Shown: piece after piece, positions 2,071 to 18,385 of the stretch | How positions within the stretch are numbered: position 1 is the stretch's first letter | How the letters are laid out: every line of letters begins with the position of its first letter | Origin: Desulfurellales bacterium | GTDB taxonomy: Bacteria; Campylobacterota_A; Desulfurellia; Desulfurellales; Hippeaceae | Assembly (NCBI GenBank): GCA_027074255.1 | Contig: JALTDI010000108.1 | Coordinates: 1 to 26,807 of the forward strand | Direction of reading: 5' to 3' | Length of the DNA stretch: 26,807 nucleotides | Translations under genes and position numbers: made by a program | Notes under the pieces: generated by a model | The model's input: only the letters and a program-made list of their open reading frames with translations | Database searches by the model: none | Told to the model about the DNA's origin: nothing

Positions 2071-2569
2071 TTTTGCGTCATTTTCCGCTGCATCCGATAA
2101 TTTAGAGCATATTTTTAAACTTTACAGCAATAAAACGTCAACGCTGTGCTTCAAACAGACATCTATTAACGGAATGAGCGGCCAAAAGATAATCAGAGAC
2201 GGCAAACTTACCATAAATGCTAAAAAAAACATGGTTTTTGACTATAAAAATGAAAAGGTGATTATAAACGACTTTGAGGCCATTGATTATGTTCATTCCA
2301 AAAAATATATTTACAAGCTTTCTGGTTTTAACAGAGTCCTGTTTTTGCTGTTTTTGGGCAAAGAAGATGTAAATCGTTTATTCAGCATCCGATTTAAAGG
2401 CAAAGAATATGTGCTTACGCCAAAATATAAAAGCAATATAGATAAGGTCTATGCCTATTTTAAAAATGACTCTCAGATTGACAATATGACTATTTCAGAC
2501 ATATATTCCAACAAAACCATATATCAATTTTATGCTCCTCCTTGTAAGCGAACACAAAGCGGAAATTGA
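2018..2569 (+). CDS. LolA-like periplasmic lipoprotein carrier protein
   Basis: Sec signal peptide, F-x-Q...G-K-L-T-I...F-D-Y pattern typical of the LolA fold, 183 aa, RBS GAGGGAG upstream of a GTG start. The match is divergent. Confidence 0.6.
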   Translation: MKIFKVFRILLALLIACNFASFSAASDNLEHIFKLYSNKTSTLCFKQTSINGMSGQKIIRDGKLTINAKKNMVFDYKNEKVIINDFEAIDYVHSKKYIYKLSGFNRVLFLLFLGKEDVNRLFSIRFKGKEYVLTPKYKSNIDKVYAYFKNDSQIDNMTISDIYSNKTIYQFYAPPCKRTQSGN

Positions 2570-4202
2570 GCCACTTTTAAAGCTATATCCTCTTAAAAAG
2601 CACTCTAATCTGTTAGAACACGATAATCTTGCCGTTTTCATAAACTACGGACAAAAATCTTTAAATCTCGGTTATAGTGTGACGTCTATTTTATCAAAGC
2701 ATGATGAGATAAATATTGCTGTTTTGTTTGGATATTCGGGCTCATTAAACGATGAGTTTAAGATAGGGGATGTTTTTTTCGGCAGGAAAGTAAAGCTTAT
2801 GCACAATAAAAAACCGGTTTTTAATCCCATTGATATGCCTTATATCAGGGGTGAAAAATCGGCTGAAATGATTAGTCTGCTTGATGAGTATGATACAGAT
2901 AATGAATTTTTAAGTCTATTTGCCGATACGGTTGATAAAGAGAGCTATTTTTTTGCCAAAGCGACAAAGAGCGTCAATAAATTCGGTTTAGTGCTGAGGG
3001 TGATAAGCGATGATAATTCAGGTATGGCATCAGCCGATTTTGCAAGAAAAAATTTTCGCTGCGATGTAGCTAAGGTGAAAGACATAATTGATAAATTGCT
3101 GTTAATAGAAAAGGACAGCGTTCTTTTTGAGATATTCAGATATACGGGTATTTTTGATATAAACGTTTTGAAAGGGCTTGGAAAGTTGATTGCAAAGCGC
3201 AGGTTGACATTTTCTCTAAGACAGAAACTCTACAAAAAAATCAAAATCAATATGTCAAAACCGTATAAGCCGAAAAAAATCACCAAACCTGCAATATTTT
3301 TGGAAAAAGGGGTTGATAAAAGCAGGATAGGCATTCGCATTGATAAAAAAAGATGCTTTGAAATTGACGATTATACGGCATATTTTCACAATCTGTCGGA
3401 TAGAATGGCTTTTATTTTTGCAGACAAAAAGGGAGAATTTTTGAGAAAAACGCCCGATAGCTACACGCCGGACAAATCATACGGATATTCAATTCTTAAT
3501 GCCTATAATTGTCTATACGACTGTTCATACTGTTTTTTGAAGGGTTATTTTAAAAGTTTTAATCCTGTTGTTTTTTTAAATTATGAGGACTATTTCAAAG
3601 CCGTTGAGGATACTTTGGAAAAGGATAAAAAACGTCCCTTATATTTTTATTCTGGAACATTTTCCGATTCTTTGTCTTTCGGTGCATTTTGTGATTTTAA
3701 TTTGAGACTTGTTGAGTTTTTTAAAGGCATTGATGAGGATATTTATCTTGAATTAAGAACAAAATCAGACAGTATTGAAGAGCTGAGCAAGCTTGAACCG
3801 AGTAAAAAAATAATTGCTGCATTTTCTCTAAACCCGCAAATTATCATAGACAAATATGAGCATTTTACGCCTAATCTTGAAAGAAGACTTGCCGCAATTA
3901 GGAAACTTGACGATAAAGGTTTTCAAATAGGCATAAGATTTGACCCTGTTTTTGTGGATTATATCGATGAGTATACAGAGTTGATAAACAAGATAAAAAC
4001 GATAAAAAACCTCCATTCCGTGGAGATAGGTTTTTTGAGATACGATAAGAACGACTATGCAAATCTGCTTATCAAAAATGCTTCCATATTAAAAAAACTT
4101 ATACCAGCTGATGGAATGTATAGATATCCGAATGACAAAAGAGCCGAGTATGTAGGCATTTTTTCAAAATTGATGCATAAATTTTATGTAAATATGGAAT
4201 AA
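2532..4202 (+). CDS. Fusion: N-terminal MTA/SAH nucleosidase / nucleoside phosphorylase-like domain plus C-terminal spore photoproduct lyase (SplB)-like radical SAM domain
   Basis: N-terminus has GYSGSL...IGDV, VDKESY and LRVISD (PNP_UDP_1-type motifs). C-terminus has NCLYDCSYCFL (CxxxCxxC), YSGTFSDSL, LELRTKS, AFSLNP and IGIRFDP, as in SplB-family proteins. Confidence 0.75.
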   Translation: MLLLVSEHKAEIEPLLKLYPLKKHSNLLEHDNLAVFINYGQKSLNLGYSVTSILSKHDEINIAVLFGYSGSLNDEFKIGDVFFGRKVKLMHNKKPVFNPIDMPYIRGEKSAEMISLLDEYDTDNEFLSLFADTVDKESYFFAKATKSVNKFGLVLRVISDDNSGMASADFARKNFRCDVAKVKDIIDKLLLIEKDSVLFEIFRYTGIFDINVLKGLGKLIAKRRLTFSLRQKLYKKIKINMSKPYKPKKITKPAIFLEKGVDKSRIGIRIDKKRCFEIDDYTAYFHNLSDRMAFIFADKKGEFLRKTPDSYTPDKSYGYSILNAYNCLYDCSYCFLKGYFKSFNPVVFLNYEDYFKAVEDTLEKDKKRPLYFYSGTFSDSLSFGAFCDFNLRLVEFFKGIDEDIYLELRTKSDSIEELSKLEPSKKIIAAFSLNPQIIIDKYEHFTPNLERRLAAIRKLDDKGFQIGIRFDPVFVDYIDEYTELINKIKTIKNLHSVEIGFLRYDKNDYANLLIKNASILKKLIPADGMYRYPNDKRAEYVGIFSKLMHKFYVNME

Positions 4203-4385: not shown

Positions 4386-4456
4386 TTTAGTAAGAAAAAT
4401 TAGCAGGTAGTTTTTGTTTCACATATATTTAGTTTTATTGTTTTGAGGAGGTGTTT

Positions 4457-6520
4457 ATGGATAAGGATAAGAAAAAAGGCGGGGTGTCAAGAAGAACCAT
4501 ACTTAAACGAGCGGCCATTGGTGGTATAGGCGCTGCTGCGCTTGGTGCGGGGCTATCTGCCACTAAAACACCCAAAGCCGATGCAGCCGGGATTTCCGGT
4601 GAATTGGCAAAGGTGATGAAGGAAAGAAATCTTACCCCCGATAATGTTCTTGCTGCTGCAAAGACGTATATCCCAGAAGGCGTACATGATCCTTATATCT
4701 GTTTGTCATCCGGTGGACAGAGCGGCCATTTGTTTCTTTATGGTGTTCCTTCAATGAGACTTATTAAAACTATAGCTGTTTTTGCTCCAGAGACATGGCA
4801 GGGCTGGGGGTATGATAAGGAATCACAGGAAATTATTAAACAGGGCTCTGTTCTGGGAAGACCTGTTCATACCGGCGATACTCACCATCCTGGATTTTCA
4901 GAAACAAAGGGTGATTATGATGGTGAATATGCTTTTATTAATGATAAGAGCCAGGGTAGAATAGCTGTTATAGACACTCGTGACTGGCAGACAAAGCAAA
5001 TTGTTAAAAACCCTGTGTTGAAATCTACACACGGCGGAACAAGCGTCACTCAGAACACGGAATATATCTTTACAGCCTGTCAGTATGCTGCACCGTATGA
5101 TAATAAGTATCATGATCCTATGGATCAGGAAGTTTACAACACAATTTTTAGAGGAGGCCATACATACTGGAAGTTCGATAGGAAAAAAGGCAAAGTGGAT
5201 ATGGAAAATTCATTTACCATTGAATTGCCGCCATATATGCAGGATATTAACGACTGCGGTAAATTAATGAGTGGTGACTGGGGTTTTTCTAATTCTTTCA
5301 ATACGGAAAGGTACACAGGCGGAATAGAACGTGGTATGCCTCCGTTTGAGGCAGGTTGTTCTGCAAACGATACCGACTTCATTCATATGACAAACTGGAA
5401 AAAGGCTGAAGAGGTTATTAAGAAGGGTAATTATAAGACGATTAATGGTCACAAGGTCATACCTATTAAGGTTGCTGTTGAAAACGGTCTTGTCTATTTA
5501 ATACCTGTTATGAAGAGTCCTCACGGAATAACAGTTAGTCCGGATGGCAGGTATATTTTGGCATCGGGTAAACTGGATACTCACACCTCTGTTTACGATT
5601 TCAAAAAGATTCAGCACCTGATAGAAAACAAGATATACGACGGAAGAGATCCCTACGGACTTCCCATTCTCTCAATGAGAAGGACACTTCATGGTATGGT
5701 ACAAACTGGTCTTGGTCCTTTGCATAACCAGTTTGACGTTGCTGACACCCATATAGCATACAACTCTCTCTTTGTTGATTCGGCAATCGTTAAGTATGAT
5801 TATTTAAAACTCAAAGTTTTGGACAGGATACCTATTCATTATAATGTAGGCCACTTGACAGCCGTTCACGGTGATACGGTAAATCCGAGAGGGAAATATT
5901 TAATTTCTCTAAACAAACTTGCTATTGATAGATTTGCTGATGTTGGTCCTCTGCATCCTCAAAACCACGAATTGATAGATATATCTGATCCTTTGAATAA
6001 AAAAATGAGAATGCTCTATGCTATGCCTTTCCCGCTTGGCGAACCTCACTATGCACAGATTATAGAGACAAAGACAGTTGAAAAGAGAGCATGGAAGGTA
6101 TATCCTCTTGGAACAGACCCGGTAACTATGGCAAGATCACCCAACAGAACTCTTGCAGGCCGTGAGAAAATCGTAAGAAAAGGCAACCATGTAGAGGTTT
6201 GGGGAACAGCAATCAGGAGTCACTTCAATCCTGAGCATATATACTGCAAGGTCGGAGATAAGGTTACTATTCATATAACGAACCTCGAAAGGGCTGAGGA
6301 TGAGACCCACGATTTTGGAGTTTACTACTTCAATGTAACAGCATCACTGGAGCCCGGAAAAACTGCTACCGTTGAATTTGTGGCTGATAAAGAGGGAATA
6401 TATCCGTTCTATTGCCAGGAATTCTGCTCTGCTCTGCACCTTGAAATGTTTGGCTACATAGCCGTATTGCCAAAAGACGGTAAATTCCCCGAAGGTGCAT
6501 TCTTTAACAAGGAAGGCTAA
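4457..6520 (+). CDS. nosZ: Nitrous oxide reductase, clade II type, with Tat signal peptide
   Basis: All seven CuZ His motifs are present (DTHH, THGG, SPHG, GPLH, NVGH, GEPH). CuA site is ETHDF plus CQEFCSALHLEM. Clade II-type N-terminal core DPY...SGGQSG...GVPSMRL.K.I.VF. Signal SRRTILK, h-region, ADA cleavage site. RBS GAGGAGG favours ATG 4457 over the ORF-track start at 4451. Confidence 0.97.
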   Translation: MDKDKKKGGVSRRTILKRAAIGGIGAAALGAGLSATKTPKADAAGISGELAKVMKERNLTPDNVLAAAKTYIPEGVHDPYICLSSGGQSGHLFLYGVPSMRLIKTIAVFAPETWQGWGYDKESQEIIKQGSVLGRPVHTGDTHHPGFSETKGDYDGEYAFINDKSQGRIAVIDTRDWQTKQIVKNPVLKSTHGGTSVTQNTEYIFTACQYAAPYDNKYHDPMDQEVYNTIFRGGHTYWKFDRKKGKVDMENSFTIELPPYMQDINDCGKLMSGDWGFSNSFNTERYTGGIERGMPPFEAGCSANDTDFIHMTNWKKAEEVIKKGNYKTINGHKVIPIKVAVENGLVYLIPVMKSPHGITVSPDGRYILASGKLDTHTSVYDFKKIQHLIENKIYDGRDPYGLPILSMRRTLHGMVQTGLGPLHNQFDVADTHIAYNSLFVDSAIVKYDYLKLKVLDRIPIHYNVGHLTAVHGDTVNPRGKYLISLNKLAIDRFADVGPLHPQNHELIDISDPLNKKMRMLYAMPFPLGEPHYAQIIETKTVEKRAWKVYPLGTDPVTMARSPNRTLAGREKIVRKGNHVEVWGTAIRSHFNPEHIYCKVGDKVTIHITNLERAEDETHDFGVYYFNVTASLEPGKTATVEFVADKEGIYPFYCQEFCSALHLEMFGYIAVLPKDGKFPEGAFFNKEG

Positions 6521-6539: not shown

Positions 6540-6926
6540 ATGAAGAGATTGTTGAGAATTGAAATTGTATTGTTTGCCGTAGTAGCACTATTGAGTTTGG
6601 GTTCGGTTAGCTCGTTTGCCGGCCAAAACTATAAGGCTCTCTACCAAAAAACAATAAAGACAAATGACGGTATAAGGCATCAGATAAAAATAGTTAAGGC
6701 AAAGCTATTAAAAGCCGGCTATAAAAAGAACACCACAGCAGTCGGAATAATGAGCGATGCAAATGACCAGATAAAATATGCAAACGAAGTGAGAACTAAG
6801 TCTGATAAATTGGCAAAAGAGGGTAAATATAAGTCCGCTTATTTGTGGGCTTATCAGGAATTCCAATATCTTGTAAAGGCTGTTGTTAAATTGAATGTTA
6901 TAAATAACCTGTTAACATCTAAATAA
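6540..6926 (+). CDS. Secreted alpha-helical protein of unknown function (nos accessory X1; paralog of 8189-8584)
   Basis: RBS AAGGAG, Sec signal ending SFA-G, no Cys or heme motif. Shares N(Y/F)..Y.K...TN.G and AK..K(Y/W)..AY(L/I)WA..E(F/W).YL with X2. Confidence 0.8.
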   Translation: MKRLLRIEIVLFAVVALLSLGSVSSFAGQNYKALYQKTIKTNDGIRHQIKIVKAKLLKAGYKKNTTAVGIMSDANDQIKYANEVRTKSDKLAKEGKYKSAYLWAYQEFQYLVKAVVKLNVINNLLTSK

Positions 6927-6946
6927 TTTTAAGGGTTTATTATTTA

Positions 6947-6984
6947 GGGGACGAAACCTAAAACGGCTTTGTCCCCGTATTTTT
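6947..6984 (+). terminator. Intercistronic hairpin (partial terminator or mRNA stabiliser)
   Basis: GGGGACGAAACC-TAAAAC-GGCTTTGTCCCC imperfect stem followed by GTATTTTT. Confidence 0.55.
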
Positions 6985-6995
6985 GGAGGCTTGTT

Positions 6996-7403
6996 ATGAA
7001 AAAGAGTTTAATGGGTATCGCAATGGCGGTAATAATGCTGGCAGTGGGATTGAATTCGGCTAATACTTTTGCAGCCGGCAGTAAAACATTAACAAAGCAG
7101 GATATTTCAAAGCTGAGGGATGTTTTTGATAATTACGGCTGCAGCGGCTGCCATATGTATATGCACAAAGACAGTACCTCAGGTCCGGCTGTGGCTGTCA
7201 TAGCGGCATTGTCAAAAGCAAAACCTGAAAAATGGGTTATAAGCTGGATTATGAATCCAAAGCCACACTATGCAGAGCCGGACGTTAAAGCTTTAATCAA
7301 TCAATATGTTCAGTATATGCCTAACAACGGCGTAAAGAAGGAAGACGCCAAAAAGCTGTATGACTACTTAATGGCGGTGGCAGATGGAAAAGTAAAAAAA
7401 TAA
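6996..7403 (+). CDS. Periplasmic monoheme cytochrome c (NosC-like)
   Basis: Sec signal, CSGCH heme motif, distal YMPN Met and W..WI.NP motif. RBS GGAGG supports ATG 6996. Confidence 0.88.
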   Translation: MKKSLMGIAMAVIMLAVGLNSANTFAAGSKTLTKQDISKLRDVFDNYGCSGCHMYMHKDSTSGPAVAVIAALSKAKPEKWVISWIMNPKPHYAEPDVKALINQYVQYMPNNGVKKEDAKKLYDYLMAVADGKVKK

Positions 7404-7409
7404 GGAGAT

Positions 7410-8192
7410 ATGGCAAAAGTGAAATTGGAAAAATTCCAAATTTATGGATTAATAGGAGCGGCTGTTTTTTTTGTGGCTCTTTTGTGGCCTAAGGTTTATG
7501 ATAAAAATGTTTATCAAAATAAATTGAATGCATCAAGAGTCGAAATGGTTTACGGCTTAAAGGGTTTTGTAAAGAACTGGGAGTATTTGGGTAGGAAGAT
7601 ACCCCGATTTGTTGTGCCTGTCGGTTCCAAGGTTATTGTTCCTCGCGGAAATCCTCTATGGAGAATCATACTTGATGCCCCTCAGTATCCAAGAACCGCT
7701 TTTCCCGACGGTCTGCTGGTCAATATTTATATTAACGGGCCTGCTAACGGGTGTAAAACCATGTCTTGTTTGCATGAGATAGATACGATTAATCACTATA
7801 TAGGTATGCAGTCTTTGAGTATAGCATCTCCCGTTATGAGCAGAATAGGCGGGTATCTCGCTTTTTTTATGTTTTTATCTTTACTTGTTTTTGTGTTCGT
7901 CAAAAAGAGGCTGCTCGGGTATCTTGTGATTTTGCCTCTTGTGACTCCGTTCATATTTTTAACCGTATTTTCTTTTTGGACGCATTGGTTGGGGTACAAT
8001 TTAAACGCGTGGGCATCGTTTAAGGTCCATGAATTTACTCCTATTCTCTACGGCATAGGAAAGGTTGCCCAGTTTTCTACACATAACAGGCCTGCTATCG
8101 GGTTTTCTATTCTTTTGATTTCTGTTGTGTTTATATCACTGTCGTATCTTTCAAAAAGAAAATATTTAAAGCAGGAAGGACTTTTGAAATGA
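7410..8192 (+). CDS. nosB: NosB, clade II nos membrane protein
   Basis: PLW.I.L.APQYP...GL and HEIDTINHYIGM conserved blocks, one N-terminal and three C-terminal TM segments, located in the nos cluster. Confidence 0.85.
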   Translation: MAKVKLEKFQIYGLIGAAVFFVALLWPKVYDKNVYQNKLNASRVEMVYGLKGFVKNWEYLGRKIPRFVVPVGSKVIVPRGNPLWRIILDAPQYPRTAFPDGLLVNIYINGPANGCKTMSCLHEIDTINHYIGMQSLSIASPVMSRIGGYLAFFMFLSLLVFVFVKKRLLGYLVILPLVTPFIFLTVFSFWTHWLGYNLNAWASFKVHEFTPILYGIGKVAQFSTHNRPAIGFSILLISVVFISLSYLSKRKYLKQEGLLK

Positions 8193-8584
8193 AAACAGCT
8201 CGTTTACCGTTTATATTAGCTGTCTTTGTTAGCGTGGTTTTTTTAACAAGCACTGCATCTGCTGGTAATTTTCAAGATAAATACAACAAACAGCTGATGA
8301 CAAACAGGGGAATGGTCGCAACCGATTTTATGATATTCACGTGGTTTAAGCAGCATCCAGAATATAAGCAGTATGAATCTATTAAAGACAGGGTAGATTA
8401 TTTTTATAAAGAACTCGAACAAGCAAAGCAGGCGCATTTTCGAGCTCTATCATTTGCCAAGGATAAAAAATGGCAAGACGCATATATTTGGGCGAAAAAA
8501 GAATGGAAATATTTGAATGATATTGCAGTTAAGGGCAAAAAAACGCAGGATAATCTGATGGAGCTAGAAAGTAAAAAGGAATAG
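8189..8584 (+). CDS. Secreted alpha-helical protein of unknown function (nos accessory X2; paralog of 6540-6926)
   Basis: ATGA overlap with the nosB stop, Sec signal ending ASA-G, and the motifs shared with X1. Confidence 0.8.
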   Translation: MKTARLPFILAVFVSVVFLTSTASAGNFQDKYNKQLMTNRGMVATDFMIFTWFKQHPEYKQYESIKDRVDYFYKELEQAKQAHFRALSFAKDKKWQDAYIWAKKEWKYLNDIAVKGKKTQDNLMELESKKE

Positions 8585-8593
8585 GAGCCATAA

Positions 8594-9130
8594 ATGAACA
8601 GATTTTTAAAACTTGCTTTGCCGATTCTGATACCGATTTTGGGTATGGGTATAATTTTTATAGTTATATTCGGTATTCCCAAGAAAAATAATGCTATGAA
8701 GCCTGTTCCTATACGGTGGGGAGAAGATGTATGCGTCAGATGCGATATGAGCATAGTGGACGGTTATCATGCAGCTGAAATTATTAACCCTGTAACAAAA
8801 AAGGCGTATAAATTTGACGATATCGGCTGTGCAGTTATATGGCTCTATAAAGAACACAAATTTAAGTGGGCAGATAGGGCTGTTATTTGGGTCACAAGTG
8901 CAAAAAACGGTGCGTGGCTTTATGCCAAAAAGGCCTGCTGGGTTAGCGGACAGATAACACCTATGGGCTTCGGTTTCGGAGCATATAAAGAAAAACCGCA
9001 TCAATATAAAGAATGCATACCTTGGAAAACTGTTGTGAAAACCATATTCAAAAAAGAAGAGAAATTTGAAAAAGCCCTCTACGGCGGATATCCCTCAGGA
9101 GGCACCTCGGATAATGCTTCAAAAAAATAA
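8594..9130 (+). CDS. nosL: NosL-family copper chaperone (copy 1, N-terminal TM anchor)
   Basis: CVRCDM (CxxCxM), YKFDDIGCA and TPMGFGFGAY motifs. Confidence 0.88.
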   Translation: MNRFLKLALPILIPILGMGIIFIVIFGIPKKNNAMKPVPIRWGEDVCVRCDMSIVDGYHAAEIINPVTKKAYKFDDIGCAVIWLYKEHKFKWADRAVIWVTSAKNGAWLYAKKACWVSGQITPMGFGFGAYKEKPHQYKECIPWKTVVKTIFKKEEKFEKALYGGYPSGGTSDNASKK

Positions 9131-12013: not shown

Positions 12014-12658
12014 TTGATTGATATTAAAGGGCTTGGAAAGGATTTTGGCAAGGGCATAGTGCTTCATGATATAAACTTACATATTGGAAAGGGCGAGAGA
12101 ATCATGGTTGTAGGCGGAAACGGAAGTGGAAAGACTACAATGCTGCGCTGTATAATTGGTTCTTATGTCTATAAAGGCGAAATAAGAATTATGGATATGG
12201 AGGCAAGGCACAATAAAAGCAAACTTGCCAATTATATAGGGTATGTACCTCAAATCCCTCCGCCGATTCTTATGACAGTTCAGCAGCTGATAGAATTCAT
12301 TTGCAATATAGATAACAAACAGGATGAAGAAAATGTTATATACGATGTTTTGAAGAAGCTTCAATTCGAGGATATCGGTATAAAAAGACACTTTAAAAAA
12401 CTTTCCGGAGGCATGCAGAAAAAGGTCTTGATGGCAATAGCTTTGGGAAGACAGCCGAATATTTTAGTATTAGATGAACCGCTTGCCTATATAGATCCGG
12501 ATAGCAGGGTCATAATTTCCAATGTTGTCAATGCCATGCCGAATGATTTAACACTGATTTATACGTCACACAGAGAAGAAAAGGGCAGTATAAGGGCAGA
12601 TAGAATCATAGAAATGGATAACGGAGAAATTATTAGGGATGAACCCTATTCATCATAA
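12014..12658 (+). CDS. nosF: NosF ABC ATPase
   Basis: Walker A GGNGSGKT, signature LSGGMQKK, Walker B ILVLDEP. GGAGG at 12001-12005 supports TTG 12014. Confidence 0.88.
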   Translation: MIDIKGLGKDFGKGIVLHDINLHIGKGERIMVVGGNGSGKTTMLRCIIGSYVYKGEIRIMDMEARHNKSKLANYIGYVPQIPPPILMTVQQLIEFICNIDNKQDEENVIYDVLKKLQFEDIGIKRHFKKLSGGMQKKVLMAIALGRQPNILVLDEPLAYIDPDSRVIISNVVNAMPNDLTLIYTSHREEKGSIRADRIIEMDNGEIIRDEPYSS

Positions 12659-12686
12659 ACGAAAATTGTTTAGCGGAGGCATGATA

Positions 12687-13223
12687 ATGAAATTTGCCAA
12701 AATGTTTTTTATGTTTGCTGCGGTATTTGTGTTTACAGTGTTCATCGGCTCTTTGTCTCATGCTGCTTCTACCGAAACGGCATTGAAGCCCGTTCCTATT
12801 AATTTCGGGCACGATAGATGTAAAAGATGCTTTATGCTGATTAGAAGCCCTCGTTATTCGGCTGAGGTCGGTAATATGCAAAGCGGTAAAATTTATAAGT
12901 TCGATGATATCGGCTGCGCTGTAATGTGGCTTTATAAAGATTGTCATTTTGCTTGGTATAAAAGTGCTAAGATATGGGTGAGTGATGCCAAAACGGGTAA
13001 ATGGCTCAATGCAAAAACAGCATGCTGGGTTGACGGTGAAATTACGCCTATGCATTTTGGCTTTGGTGCGTATAAAAGGGGCGAAATAAATAAAACATGT
13101 TTAAATTGGAAGACAGTAAAGAAATTAATTTTGAAAAGGGGTATAAAAAAAGAAAACCGTATGAAAAAATTTGTTCCTAAAAAATGGGAAATAAAAGTAA
13201 AAAAAATGTGCATACTAAACTGA
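12687..13223 (+). CDS. nosL: NosL-family copper chaperone (copy 2, cleavable Sec signal)
   Basis: CKRCFM, YKFDDIGCA and TPMHFGFGAY motifs; clearly similar to copy 1. RBS GGAGG lies 7 nt before ATG 12687. Confidence 0.86.
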   Translation: MKFAKMFFMFAAVFVFTVFIGSLSHAASTETALKPVPINFGHDRCKRCFMLIRSPRYSAEVGNMQSGKIYKFDDIGCAVMWLYKDCHFAWYKSAKIWVSDAKTGKWLNAKTACWVDGEITPMHFGFGAYKRGEINKTCLNWKTVKKLILKRGIKKENRMKKFVPKKWEIKVKKMCILN

Positions 13224-14106: not shown

Positions 14107-14126
14107 AAAATGAGGGGGAGATGATT

Positions 14127-15098
14127 ATGAAAAAGATTGTAATCTTGATTGCAGTTGTTATTTTTCTTTCTGTTAATTCTTATGCAGTAAATCTTCAGTC
14201 TATCATAGATAAATCTGCAGAAGGTGCAGCTATTAATCTGAAAAAAGGAAATTATACCGGTAATGTTGTAATAATAAAAACATTAACCCTAAATTGTAAC
14301 GGTGCTGTCATCAACGCCCATGGCAAAGGTGATGTATTGGTTATAAAAAGGGCAAAGGATGTGGTTATAAAAAATTGCGTTTTGCAAAATTCGGGCTCAA
14401 GCGGCTGGAAAATGGACGCGGGTGTTCAAATTATCGGAGCAAAGGGTACTGTTTTAAAGAACAATACAATAGAAAATTGTTTGTACGGCATTGTCGCAAA
14501 GTCGGCCAAAAAAACAATGATAGAAGGAAATGATATATCGTCAAAACCGTACAGCGAGGGTGTAAAAGGCGATGCCATACGGTTGTGGTGGAGCAGCAAC
14601 AGTGTAGTCAAAAACAACAAGATTCACAATTCGCGTGATGTCGTTTCACTGTTTTCAAATAACGTTATTTTTGATTCAAACAGAGCATCGTATTCCCATA
14701 TAGGCGTTATGGTGCAGAACTCAAACAACAACAAGATTTTGAACTTTAAGGGCTATAATAACGAGGTAAATATTCTTTTAAACTCTGCTGACAATACCGT
14801 TATAAAAGATTTTTCCATTAAAAATAAAGGAAAATTCAGAGGCATAGCTTTAATTAGGGCAAGTAATACTTTGATTGAAAATGGCTCCATAGAGCAGTGT
14901 AATAAGGGTCTTGTGATTAATCTGTCCCCTGCAAAAAGCGGCAGCAAAAACTACTTAAAAAACATTAGAATCAGAGGTAACAATATAGGCATATATCTGC
15001 ATACGACAGCAGAGCAGAGAGATAGAAACATATTGAAAAAGATAAGCTATGAGGGCAACAAAGTAAATTTAATGGATGAGTGGAAAACGCATAAATAG
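14127..15098 (+). CDS. Second, truncated NosD-like beta-helix protein
   Basis: Sec signal. The N-terminal half parallels NosD1 (QNSG..GW.MDAG; I.SKPY...GDAIRLWWS; H.SRD). It lacks the HFM copper motif and the C-terminal GDGIGD region. Start could be 14121 or 14127. Confidence 0.8.
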   Translation: MKKIVILIAVVIFLSVNSYAVNLQSIIDKSAEGAAINLKKGNYTGNVVIIKTLTLNCNGAVINAHGKGDVLVIKRAKDVVIKNCVLQNSGSSGWKMDAGVQIIGAKGTVLKNNTIENCLYGIVAKSAKKTMIEGNDISSKPYSEGVKGDAIRLWWSSNSVVKNNKIHNSRDVVSLFSNNVIFDSNRASYSHIGVMVQNSNNNKILNFKGYNNEVNILLNSADNTVIKDFSIKNKGKFRGIALIRASNTLIENGSIEQCNKGLVINLSPAKSGSKNYLKNIRIRGNNIGIYLHTTAEQRDRNILKKISYEGNKVNLMDEWKTHK

Positions 15099-18028: not shown

Positions 18029-18385
18029 ATGAAAGTAAAGTTTTTGGCAACCGCAGCTTTTGGAGCTTGTATGCTATTTGCAGGCAGCAATATCTCTTTT
18101 GCTGGTGATAAAAGCCCCGGCTATAAATTGGTTAAGGCGAACGGCTGTTTAGCCTGTCACTCTGTGGATCAGAATAAAGTCGGACCCTCTTACAAAGTTA
18201 TAGCCCAAACGAACAAAAAATTGTACGCTAAAGACGCTATAAAGCATATAGAAGAAGCCATAGAAAAGGGTTCAAAAGGTGTGTATAAAAAACTTGGAAT
18301 TACAGCTGTTATGCCTCCCTACGGATATCTTGGAAAAGAAAAGATTGAAACCATAGCAAAGTGGATTTTATCCCAGTCAAAATGA
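18029..18385 (+). CDS. Soluble periplasmic class I cytochrome c (c551/c552-like)
   Basis: Sec signal, GCLACH...VGPSY and distal VMPP Met. Confidence 0.92.
   Translation: MKVKFLATAAFGACMLFAGSNISFAGDKSPGYKLVKANGCLACHSVDQNKVGPSYKVIAQTNKKLYAKDAIKHIEEAIEKGSKGVYKKLGITAVMPPYGYLGKEKIETIAKWILSQSK

Follow-up and report, generated by a model that had tools for sequence, protein, structure and literature searches.

Free-standing copies of a clade II nitrous-oxide reductase tail domain in a nos cluster of a Desulfurellales bacterium

A stretch of 26,807 nucleotides from a Desulfurellales bacterium (GenBank assembly GCA_027074255.1, contig JALTDI010000108.1, positions 1 to 26,807 of the forward strand), referred to here as the window, carries a clade II cluster of nos genes for nitrous-oxide reductase (NosZ). 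Two small genes within this cluster, X1 and X2, encode a detached NosZ domain and its lineage-specific paralogue rather than a new accessory family. The domain is an unnamed three-helix bundle of ~105 residues, and X1 and X2 are free-standing copies of it. The reading favoured here, which as a whole we regard as somewhat better than even, is that X1 is a NosZ subunit that positions a cytochrome c, and that X2 offers the same kind of docking to a second partner. The genes concerned are as follows, in window coordinates.

4451..6520, + strand: nosZ, clade II nitrous-oxide reductase (TIGR04246), with a twin-arginine-type leader
6540..6926, + strand: X1, free-standing clade II NosZ C-terminal three-helix-bundle domain (from hhalign, AlphaFold2, AlphaFold DB, and orthologue position)
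6540-6620, + strand: X1 signal peptide (leader read from the sequence); mature protein 6621-6923
6996..7403, + strand: monohaem cytochrome c, homologue of the cNosZ C-terminal haem domain (BLAST-type match to P0043, CSGCH)
8189..8584, + strand: X2, divergent paralogue of the X1 domain, translationally coupled to nosB (ATGA overlap, AlphaFold2, structure matches)
8189-8263, + strand: X2 signal peptide (leader read from the sequence); mature protein 8264-8581

A sequence-only reading of the window had described two secreted, helical paralogues embedded in the nos cluster, X1 directly after nosZ and X2 coupled to nosB, and this description is borne out. X1 (128 amino acids) starts 19 nt past the nosZ stop with an AGGAG motif 8-9 nt upstream, and the ATG of X2 (131 amino acids) overlaps the nosB stop as ATGA. 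Read by eye, both leaders have a basic N-terminus, a hydrophobic stretch, and a small-x-small site (..SSFA/GQNY in X1; ..TASA/GNFQ in X2). The motifs that the two proteins were said to share are present, and the mature proteins contain neither Cys nor a CxxCH haem motif, as had been stated. Their pairwise similarity is statistically significant, with 26% identity and a BLASTP E of 2e-8 at full length, and an E of 4e-6 for the mature parts only.

Approximately 20 X1-type and 10 X2-type homologues were recovered from a collection of 5.8 billion proteins. They align nearly without gaps, and a 38-row family alignment is almost gap-free across ~105 residues. The ~20 X1 orthologues occupy the same gene position. 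Nonsynonymous divergence (dN) relative to the loci L001 and L004, where synonymous sites are saturated, is 0.20-0.22 for X1, equal to that of the cytochrome c and NosF, and 0.35-0.37 for X2, which makes it the fastest-evolving gene of the cluster. X1 and X2 are real, conserved, Sec-type, Cys-free helical paralogues constrained by purifying selection. The absence of a known family was likewise upheld, as no Pfam or NCBIfam model covers X1, X2, or the NosZ-fused segments described below. A match to HEPN (PF05168; 14.7-15.4 bits against a cut-off of 22, with 40 residues covered) is sub-threshold helical noise, as are those to PorE and TcdB_N. The small metal-binding protein family SMBP (PF16785) was also rejected for the family as a whole, which has no Pfam hit to it at E <= 1 and no family-wide His.

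The identity of the domain lies in its homology to the tail of clade II NosZ. When 1.84 billion representative proteins were searched with a profile of X1 and X2, 30 proteins were found at E <= 0.001. One of these, P0036 (a NosZ of 749 amino acids), carries the domain at its C-terminus (residues 641-731, profile E 1.3e-10). Another, P0043 (863 amino acids), carries it at residues 653-756, followed by a cytochrome c at 770-856 (profile E 3.1e-7), and several NosZ fragments have the same arrangement. P0043 is the 'Sec-dependent nitrous-oxide reductase' of Aliarcobacter butzleri, an enzyme of the Campylobacterota cNosZ type. Aligned with hhalign, the X1/X2 profile matches residues ~655-758 of the A. 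butzleri cNosZ (97.2%, E 3e-11), and a profile built from X2 only matches the profile of NosZ-fused domains (98.2%, E 5.4e-14).

The neighbouring genes extend this correspondence. The window NosZ scores 771 bits on TIGR04246 (the clade II, 'Sec-dependent' model) against a cut-off of 625, over residues 69-674 of 689. Since this match stops 15 residues short of the stop, the protein has no C-terminal extension. Its sequence shares 56% identity with residues 23-650 of the A. butzleri cNosZ. The cytochrome c encoded behind X1 matches residues ~749-853 of P0043 with 29% identity and an E of 2e-12, and contains CSGCH; the other small cytochrome c of the window (18029-18385) has no match to this haem domain. 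The nosZ, X1, and cytochrome c genes are therefore collinear with three consecutive parts of the A. butzleri cNosZ. Because three consecutive genes match three consecutive parts, the window encodes a 'split cNosZ' or, equivalently, cNosZ is a fusion of these three genes. In cNosZ itself, as read from P0043, only ~4 residues separate the end of helix 3 of the bundle from the first helix of the haem domain, and the haem domain is therefore held rigidly at one tip of the bundle.

In Betaproteobacteria, the fused form is the rule. A domain scan over one genome per GTDB species gave at least 581 matching stretches, of which the best 80 were examined. These 80 all come from Betaproteobacteria and their relatives, including Sulfuritalea, Sulfurisoma, Azonexus, Dechloromonas, Rhodoferax, Zoogloeaceae, and Ca. 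Desulfobacillus. At every one of these loci with an assembled NosZ frame, that frame contains the motif, 100-101 residues past the CuA motif and 16-20 residues ahead of the NosZ stop, and an open reading frame (ORF) with CxxCH is next in line wherever downstream sequence exists. In Azonexus hydrophilus, for example, the domain makes up the final 112 residues of the NosZ frame. X1 takes the equivalent position, after nosZ and before a monohaem cytochrome c gene. X2 sits behind nosB and is therefore a member of the family by homology and fold, not by position.

Structure prediction agrees with the sequence comparisons. The AlphaFold2 model of X1, built on the 38-row alignment, is a three-helix bundle (helices 4-31, 38-66, and 70-99) with a predicted local distance difference test (pLDDT) score of 97.3 and a predicted template-modelling score (pTM) of 0.88. 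The model of X2, built from X2-type sequences alone, has the same topology (pLDDT 96.1). Both have the same top hit in AlphaFold DB, an unnamed protein of 677 amino acids, with template-modelling (TM) scores of 0.90 for X1 and 0.84 for X2. In the ESM Atlas, X2 matches best to NosZ clusters of Bacteroidota (725 amino acids), to the Campylobacterota cNosZ, and to Pseudomonadota NosZ fragments, at TM 0.83-0.88 and root-mean-square deviations (rmsd) of 1.4-2.1 Å. Across both databases, matches of X1 and X2 span TM 0.83-0.90 and rmsd 1.1-2.1 Å. In a Foldseek search of the PDB, the only hits were to generic or designed bundles of helices, none with an E below 0.7, and the family profile found nothing under E 0.019 among PDB sequences. 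NosZ chains in the PDB all end before the helical segment. The sole invariant column of the family alignment is an Ala, and no Cys, His, or Met is kept family-wide. Helix 3 carries a conserved surface-type stripe (Q/W/Q/Y/K).

The distribution of the domain follows that of the enzyme. Among 37 species genomes of the window's phylum, the domain is present in exactly the 10 that have NosZ, and in none of the other 27. A Rhodocyclaceae-like family of 121 genomes includes 34 whose clade II NosZ scores over the cut-off, and every one of these carries the domain in frame with NosZ. Another five positives in that family are contig-edge fragments, and no complete copy was found in its genomes that have clade I-type NosZ only (~440-500 bits). 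In an even sample of 301 Pseudomonadota, the domain occurs in 5/5 genomes with clade II NosZ and 0/296 others, being absent from those with clade I-type NosZ only or without NosZ. In the genome sets searched, the domain thus tracks clade II NosZ exactly. The sequence-only reading had asked for co-occurrence of profile hits with nosZ, which was found in 10/10, 34/34, and 5/5 genomes, and a distribution independent of nos was not seen in these sets. Its statement that the recognised nos gene set has no such protein is correct for gene names, but not for the proteins, as most of the clade II organisms searched have the domain as part of NosZ itself, directly behind the CuA (cupredoxin) domain; in the Campylobacterota cNosZ it is flanked by CuA on one side and the C-terminal cytochrome c domain on the other.

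Free-standing copies are not confined to the window. At L014 and L095, a single copy lies between nosZ and the cytochrome c gene, and nosB is present. At L011, the order nosZ, free X, cytochrome c is accompanied by NosR-like genes, with no nosB nearby. A separate observation concerns L012 (7001-11649) and L013 (4146-8794), where two tandem NosZ genes (749 and 799 amino acids), both exceeding the core NosZ length, are followed by cytochrome c, nosB, and nosD.

The cluster lies on the + strand, in the order nosZ, X1, monohaem cytochrome c, nosB-like, X2, nosL', and nosD. Two NosG/NosH-type Fe-S proteins, nosF, a second NosL-like gene, nosY, and a second NosD-like gene lie 3' of nosD, and are followed by DOMON, Rieske, cytochrome b, and cytochrome c genes. 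The assignment to clade II rests on NosZ exceeding the TIGR04246 cut-off, on nosB (by position only), on the NosG/NosH-like Fe-S proteins, and on the absence of nosR. Further features are these.

6947..6984, + strand: GC-rich hairpin and U run between X1 and the cytochrome c gene (RNA fold)
7410..8192, + strand: nosB-like membrane protein, 260 amino acids, named from position and published clade II cluster order
8594..9130, + strand: nosL', second NosL-like gene (weak Pfam NosL match; 55% identity to the nosL-like gene)
12639-13223, + strand: nosL-like gene, 55% identical to nosL'
14121-15098, + strand: second, shorter NosD-like gene
18029-18385: the other small cytochrome c of the window, with no match to the P0043 haem domain

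The nosB-like protein has no Pfam or NCBIfam match; a gene of 252-273 amino acids is found in the nosB position at L001, L004, L012, L014, and L095 as well. For the cytochrome c gene, the ORF list gives a TTG start at 6969. The likely start is the ATG at 6996, behind GGAGG, which yields 135 amino acids, as in the cytochrome c orthologues, with a normal signal peptide. Upstream of the cluster, positions 2532-4202 encode a 556-amino-acid protein that combines a nucleoside-phosphorylase-like N-terminus (PNP_UDP_1, weak) with a radical SAM / spore-photoproduct-lyase-like domain.

X2 is found only in the window's family (f1), where it occurs together with nosL' between nosB and nosD. At L095, from a sister family, and at L014, nosB leads directly to nosD, with a single nosL and neither X2 nor nosL'. 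X2 is a lineage-specific, fast-evolving extra copy, inserted along with nosL' between these two genes. In the domain tree, the X2 clade sits on a very long stem (1.97) and is weakly attached to the X1 clade, having arisen by local duplication or transfer. Its specific invariant residues include Met17, His31, and His58, which are not found in X1, and it has a conserved layer of Q10, H58, and K78 that X1 is missing. These X2-specific residues suggest a new specific partner or ligand. A heterodimer had been proposed as a possibility; an obligate X1-X2 heterodimer is unlikely because X2 is confined to f1 and relatives run the cluster with X1 alone (L095, L014, and L011).

Two further features concern the way the split form might be exported and expressed. 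The NosZ leader SRRTILKRAAIGG (4451-4590) is of the twin-arginine type, on a clade II 'Sec-dependent' NosZ; this call is made from the motif, as the NCBIfam twin-arginine translocation (Tat) model gives 13.1 bits, under its 16.7 cut-off. The Sec-type signal peptide that is otherwise a mark of clade II NosZ is thus not found on the window NosZ. The NosZ proteins of L001, L004, and L014 have twin-arginine-type leaders too. In all four Tat-type NosZ examined, the domain is a separate Sec-exported gene, and the fused forms all have Sec leaders. Tat export as the sole cause of the split was nevertheless rejected, because the NosZ of L011 is Sec-type and yet its X is split. The hairpin at 6947-6984 has a centroid energy of -17.6 kcal/mol, and hairpins of different sequence occupy the same place at L001, L004, L014, and L095 (z -1.7 to -3.9). 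It may act as an attenuator or as a stabiliser of the mRNA 3' end, and may determine how abundant nosZ-X1 transcripts are relative to downstream ones. In these five loci the hairpin stands behind X1 and not behind nosZ, and therefore groups X1 with the structural gene.

The comparisons establish that X1 is homologous to the NosZ-fused segment, with the same fold and a collinear position, that the domain co-occurs with clade II NosZ, and that selection on it is purifying. In the mechanism proposed here, X1 would bind mature NosZ after Sec export as a stoichiometric subunit, and as a rigid adaptor it would bring the dedicated cytochrome c, a monohaem protein, to the CuA site where electrons enter. 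We infer this adaptor role because it is what the fused homologue, as the spacer between CuA and haem in cNosZ, must do there. The triad of nosZ, free X, and cytochrome c recurs in other lineages (L011, L014, L095). X2, translated in step with NosB, might give a second partner, NosB or NosL', a like docking surface. NosZ binding, docking for electron transfer, and any role of X2 are the presumptive parts of this account.

Several points weigh against it. The binding of X1 to NosZ or the cytochrome c is itself inferred. X1 and the cytochrome c are both basic (isoelectric points, pI, of 9.9 and 9.3, with NosZ at 6.8), so a direct electrostatic pair is not favoured. Betaproteobacterial NosZ ends with the domain and has no haem domain, so a function independent of cytochrome c is conceivable. 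X2 is distant from nosZ and from the cytochrome c gene, so gene position does not tie it to docking. P0045, a 188-amino-acid protein that joins X and a cytochrome c, starts within the domain and is possibly a mis-called cNosZ fragment. Lastly, the Bacteroidota-like free-standing homologues P0038 and P0052 (L009 6001-6393; L097 3624-4034) lie outside any nos cluster, before a 543-amino-acid aldehyde dehydrogenase; this branch may have taken on another role.

A more far-reaching version of the docking account would make the domain a clade II-specific adaptor that defines electron entry. X1 would clamp the cytochrome c on CuA, and X2 would be its receptor on NosB or NosL', in one tethered assembly that includes the membrane quinol-dehydrogenase module. 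We consider this improbable. If true, it would describe a new class of subunit, and could help to explain the different kinetics of clade I and clade II N2O reducers. About as unlikely is a simpler tether, in which the domain holds NosZ to NosB or to NosGH/NosB, with X2 bound to NosB and an X1-X2 pair bridging the two. The domain and nosB both belong to clade II clusters, translation of X2 is coupled to that of nosB, helical bundles often pair, and a NosB/NosC2 model has been published, as cited in PMC11539149. However, the L011 cluster has nosZ, X, cytochrome c, and NosR-like genes but no nosB, most lineages with X and nosB have no X2, and the search of 1.84 billion representatives yielded no NosB-X fusion.

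The domain might instead be purely structural, a cap or brace of the CuA domain or of the head-to-tail NosZ dimer, and a mere spacer in cNosZ. Its fusion to haem-free NosZ in Betaproteobacteria and Bacteroidota is consistent with this, as is the lack of redox or metal ligands conserved family-wide in an alignment whose only invariant column is Ala; a basic X1 would also pack tightly on a near-neutral or acidic NosZ. The conserved stripe of surface-type residues along helix 3, together with a cytochrome c gene that is invariably adjacent, suggests a partner site instead, and clade I NosZ is stable without the domain, which leaves a purely structural role doubtful. Still less probable is a role of X1 and X2 in maturation, as chaperones or in copper handling, with X2 acting alongside NosL' in copper delivery. 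The joint gain of X2 and nosL', and the Met17, His31, and His58 of the X2 clade, point this way, and a protein-language-model comparison places SMBP as a weak neighbour of X2. That neighbour score, 0.79, is within the range reached by shuffled sequences, however, and X1 and X2 have no Pfam SMBP hit, no Cys, and no His or Met conserved family-wide. Moreover, unlike a transient chaperone, the domain is kept covalently on the mature enzyme in most lineages.

The same evidence bears on the functions first proposed for X1 and X2. They had been taken for new accessory factors, but for X1 a detached domain or subunit of NosZ is the better reading, because the same domain sits in the NosZ polypeptide elsewhere. 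In other organisms the domain is a permanent part of the mature enzyme, which makes a transient folding chaperone for NosZ a poor fit, and a thermostability subunit is unsupported, given that mesophilic Betaproteobacteria carry the domain. What stands of that interpretation is a pair of real, nos-linked paralogues; what does not is a family foreign to nos.

Organisms with clade II NosZ are the main candidate biological sinks of N2O. To our knowledge, the electron route into the clade II enzyme has so far only been modelled. In all samples searched, the ~105-residue domain proved specific to clade II NosZ, and it has neither a family model nor a solved structure. Some lineages make it as a separate, easily expressed 11-kDa protein, which offers a clean experimental system, since separate preparations of X1, NosZ, and the cytochrome c can be mixed to probe the proposed docking-adaptor role. 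The findings also correct annotation: 'hypothetical proteins' behind nosZ in such clusters are NosZ modules. A full-text literature search found no description of the helical segment, although its coverage of subscription papers was partial and an earlier mention is possible. The papers found refer to no more than the C-terminal monohaem domain of the Epsilonproteobacterial enzyme, and a 2026 review is silent on the helical part.

Among known systems, the closest to the window is the cNosZ of Campylobacterota (the Wolinella succinogenes type, including A. butzleri), which has the same three modules in the same order and shares the accessory genes nosB, D, G, H, F, Y, and L. It differs in that the window distributes these modules over three genes with three separate export signals, and in that the window NosZ has a twin-arginine-type leader where cNosZ has a Sec leader. 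In addition, the window has second copies of the helical domain (X2), of nosL, and of a NosD-like gene. Clade II NosZ with a haem-free extension, as in Azonexus, Dechloromonas, Sulfuritalea, and Rhodoferax, has the homologous domain in near-gapless alignment, again with a cytochrome c gene after it; there the domain forms the last ~110 residues of NosZ, whereas in the window it is a separate Sec-exported protein. The loci L011, L014, and L095 share the order nosZ, free helical protein, cytochrome c, but with a single copy only, and the insertion of X2 with nosL' sets the window's family apart from all three.

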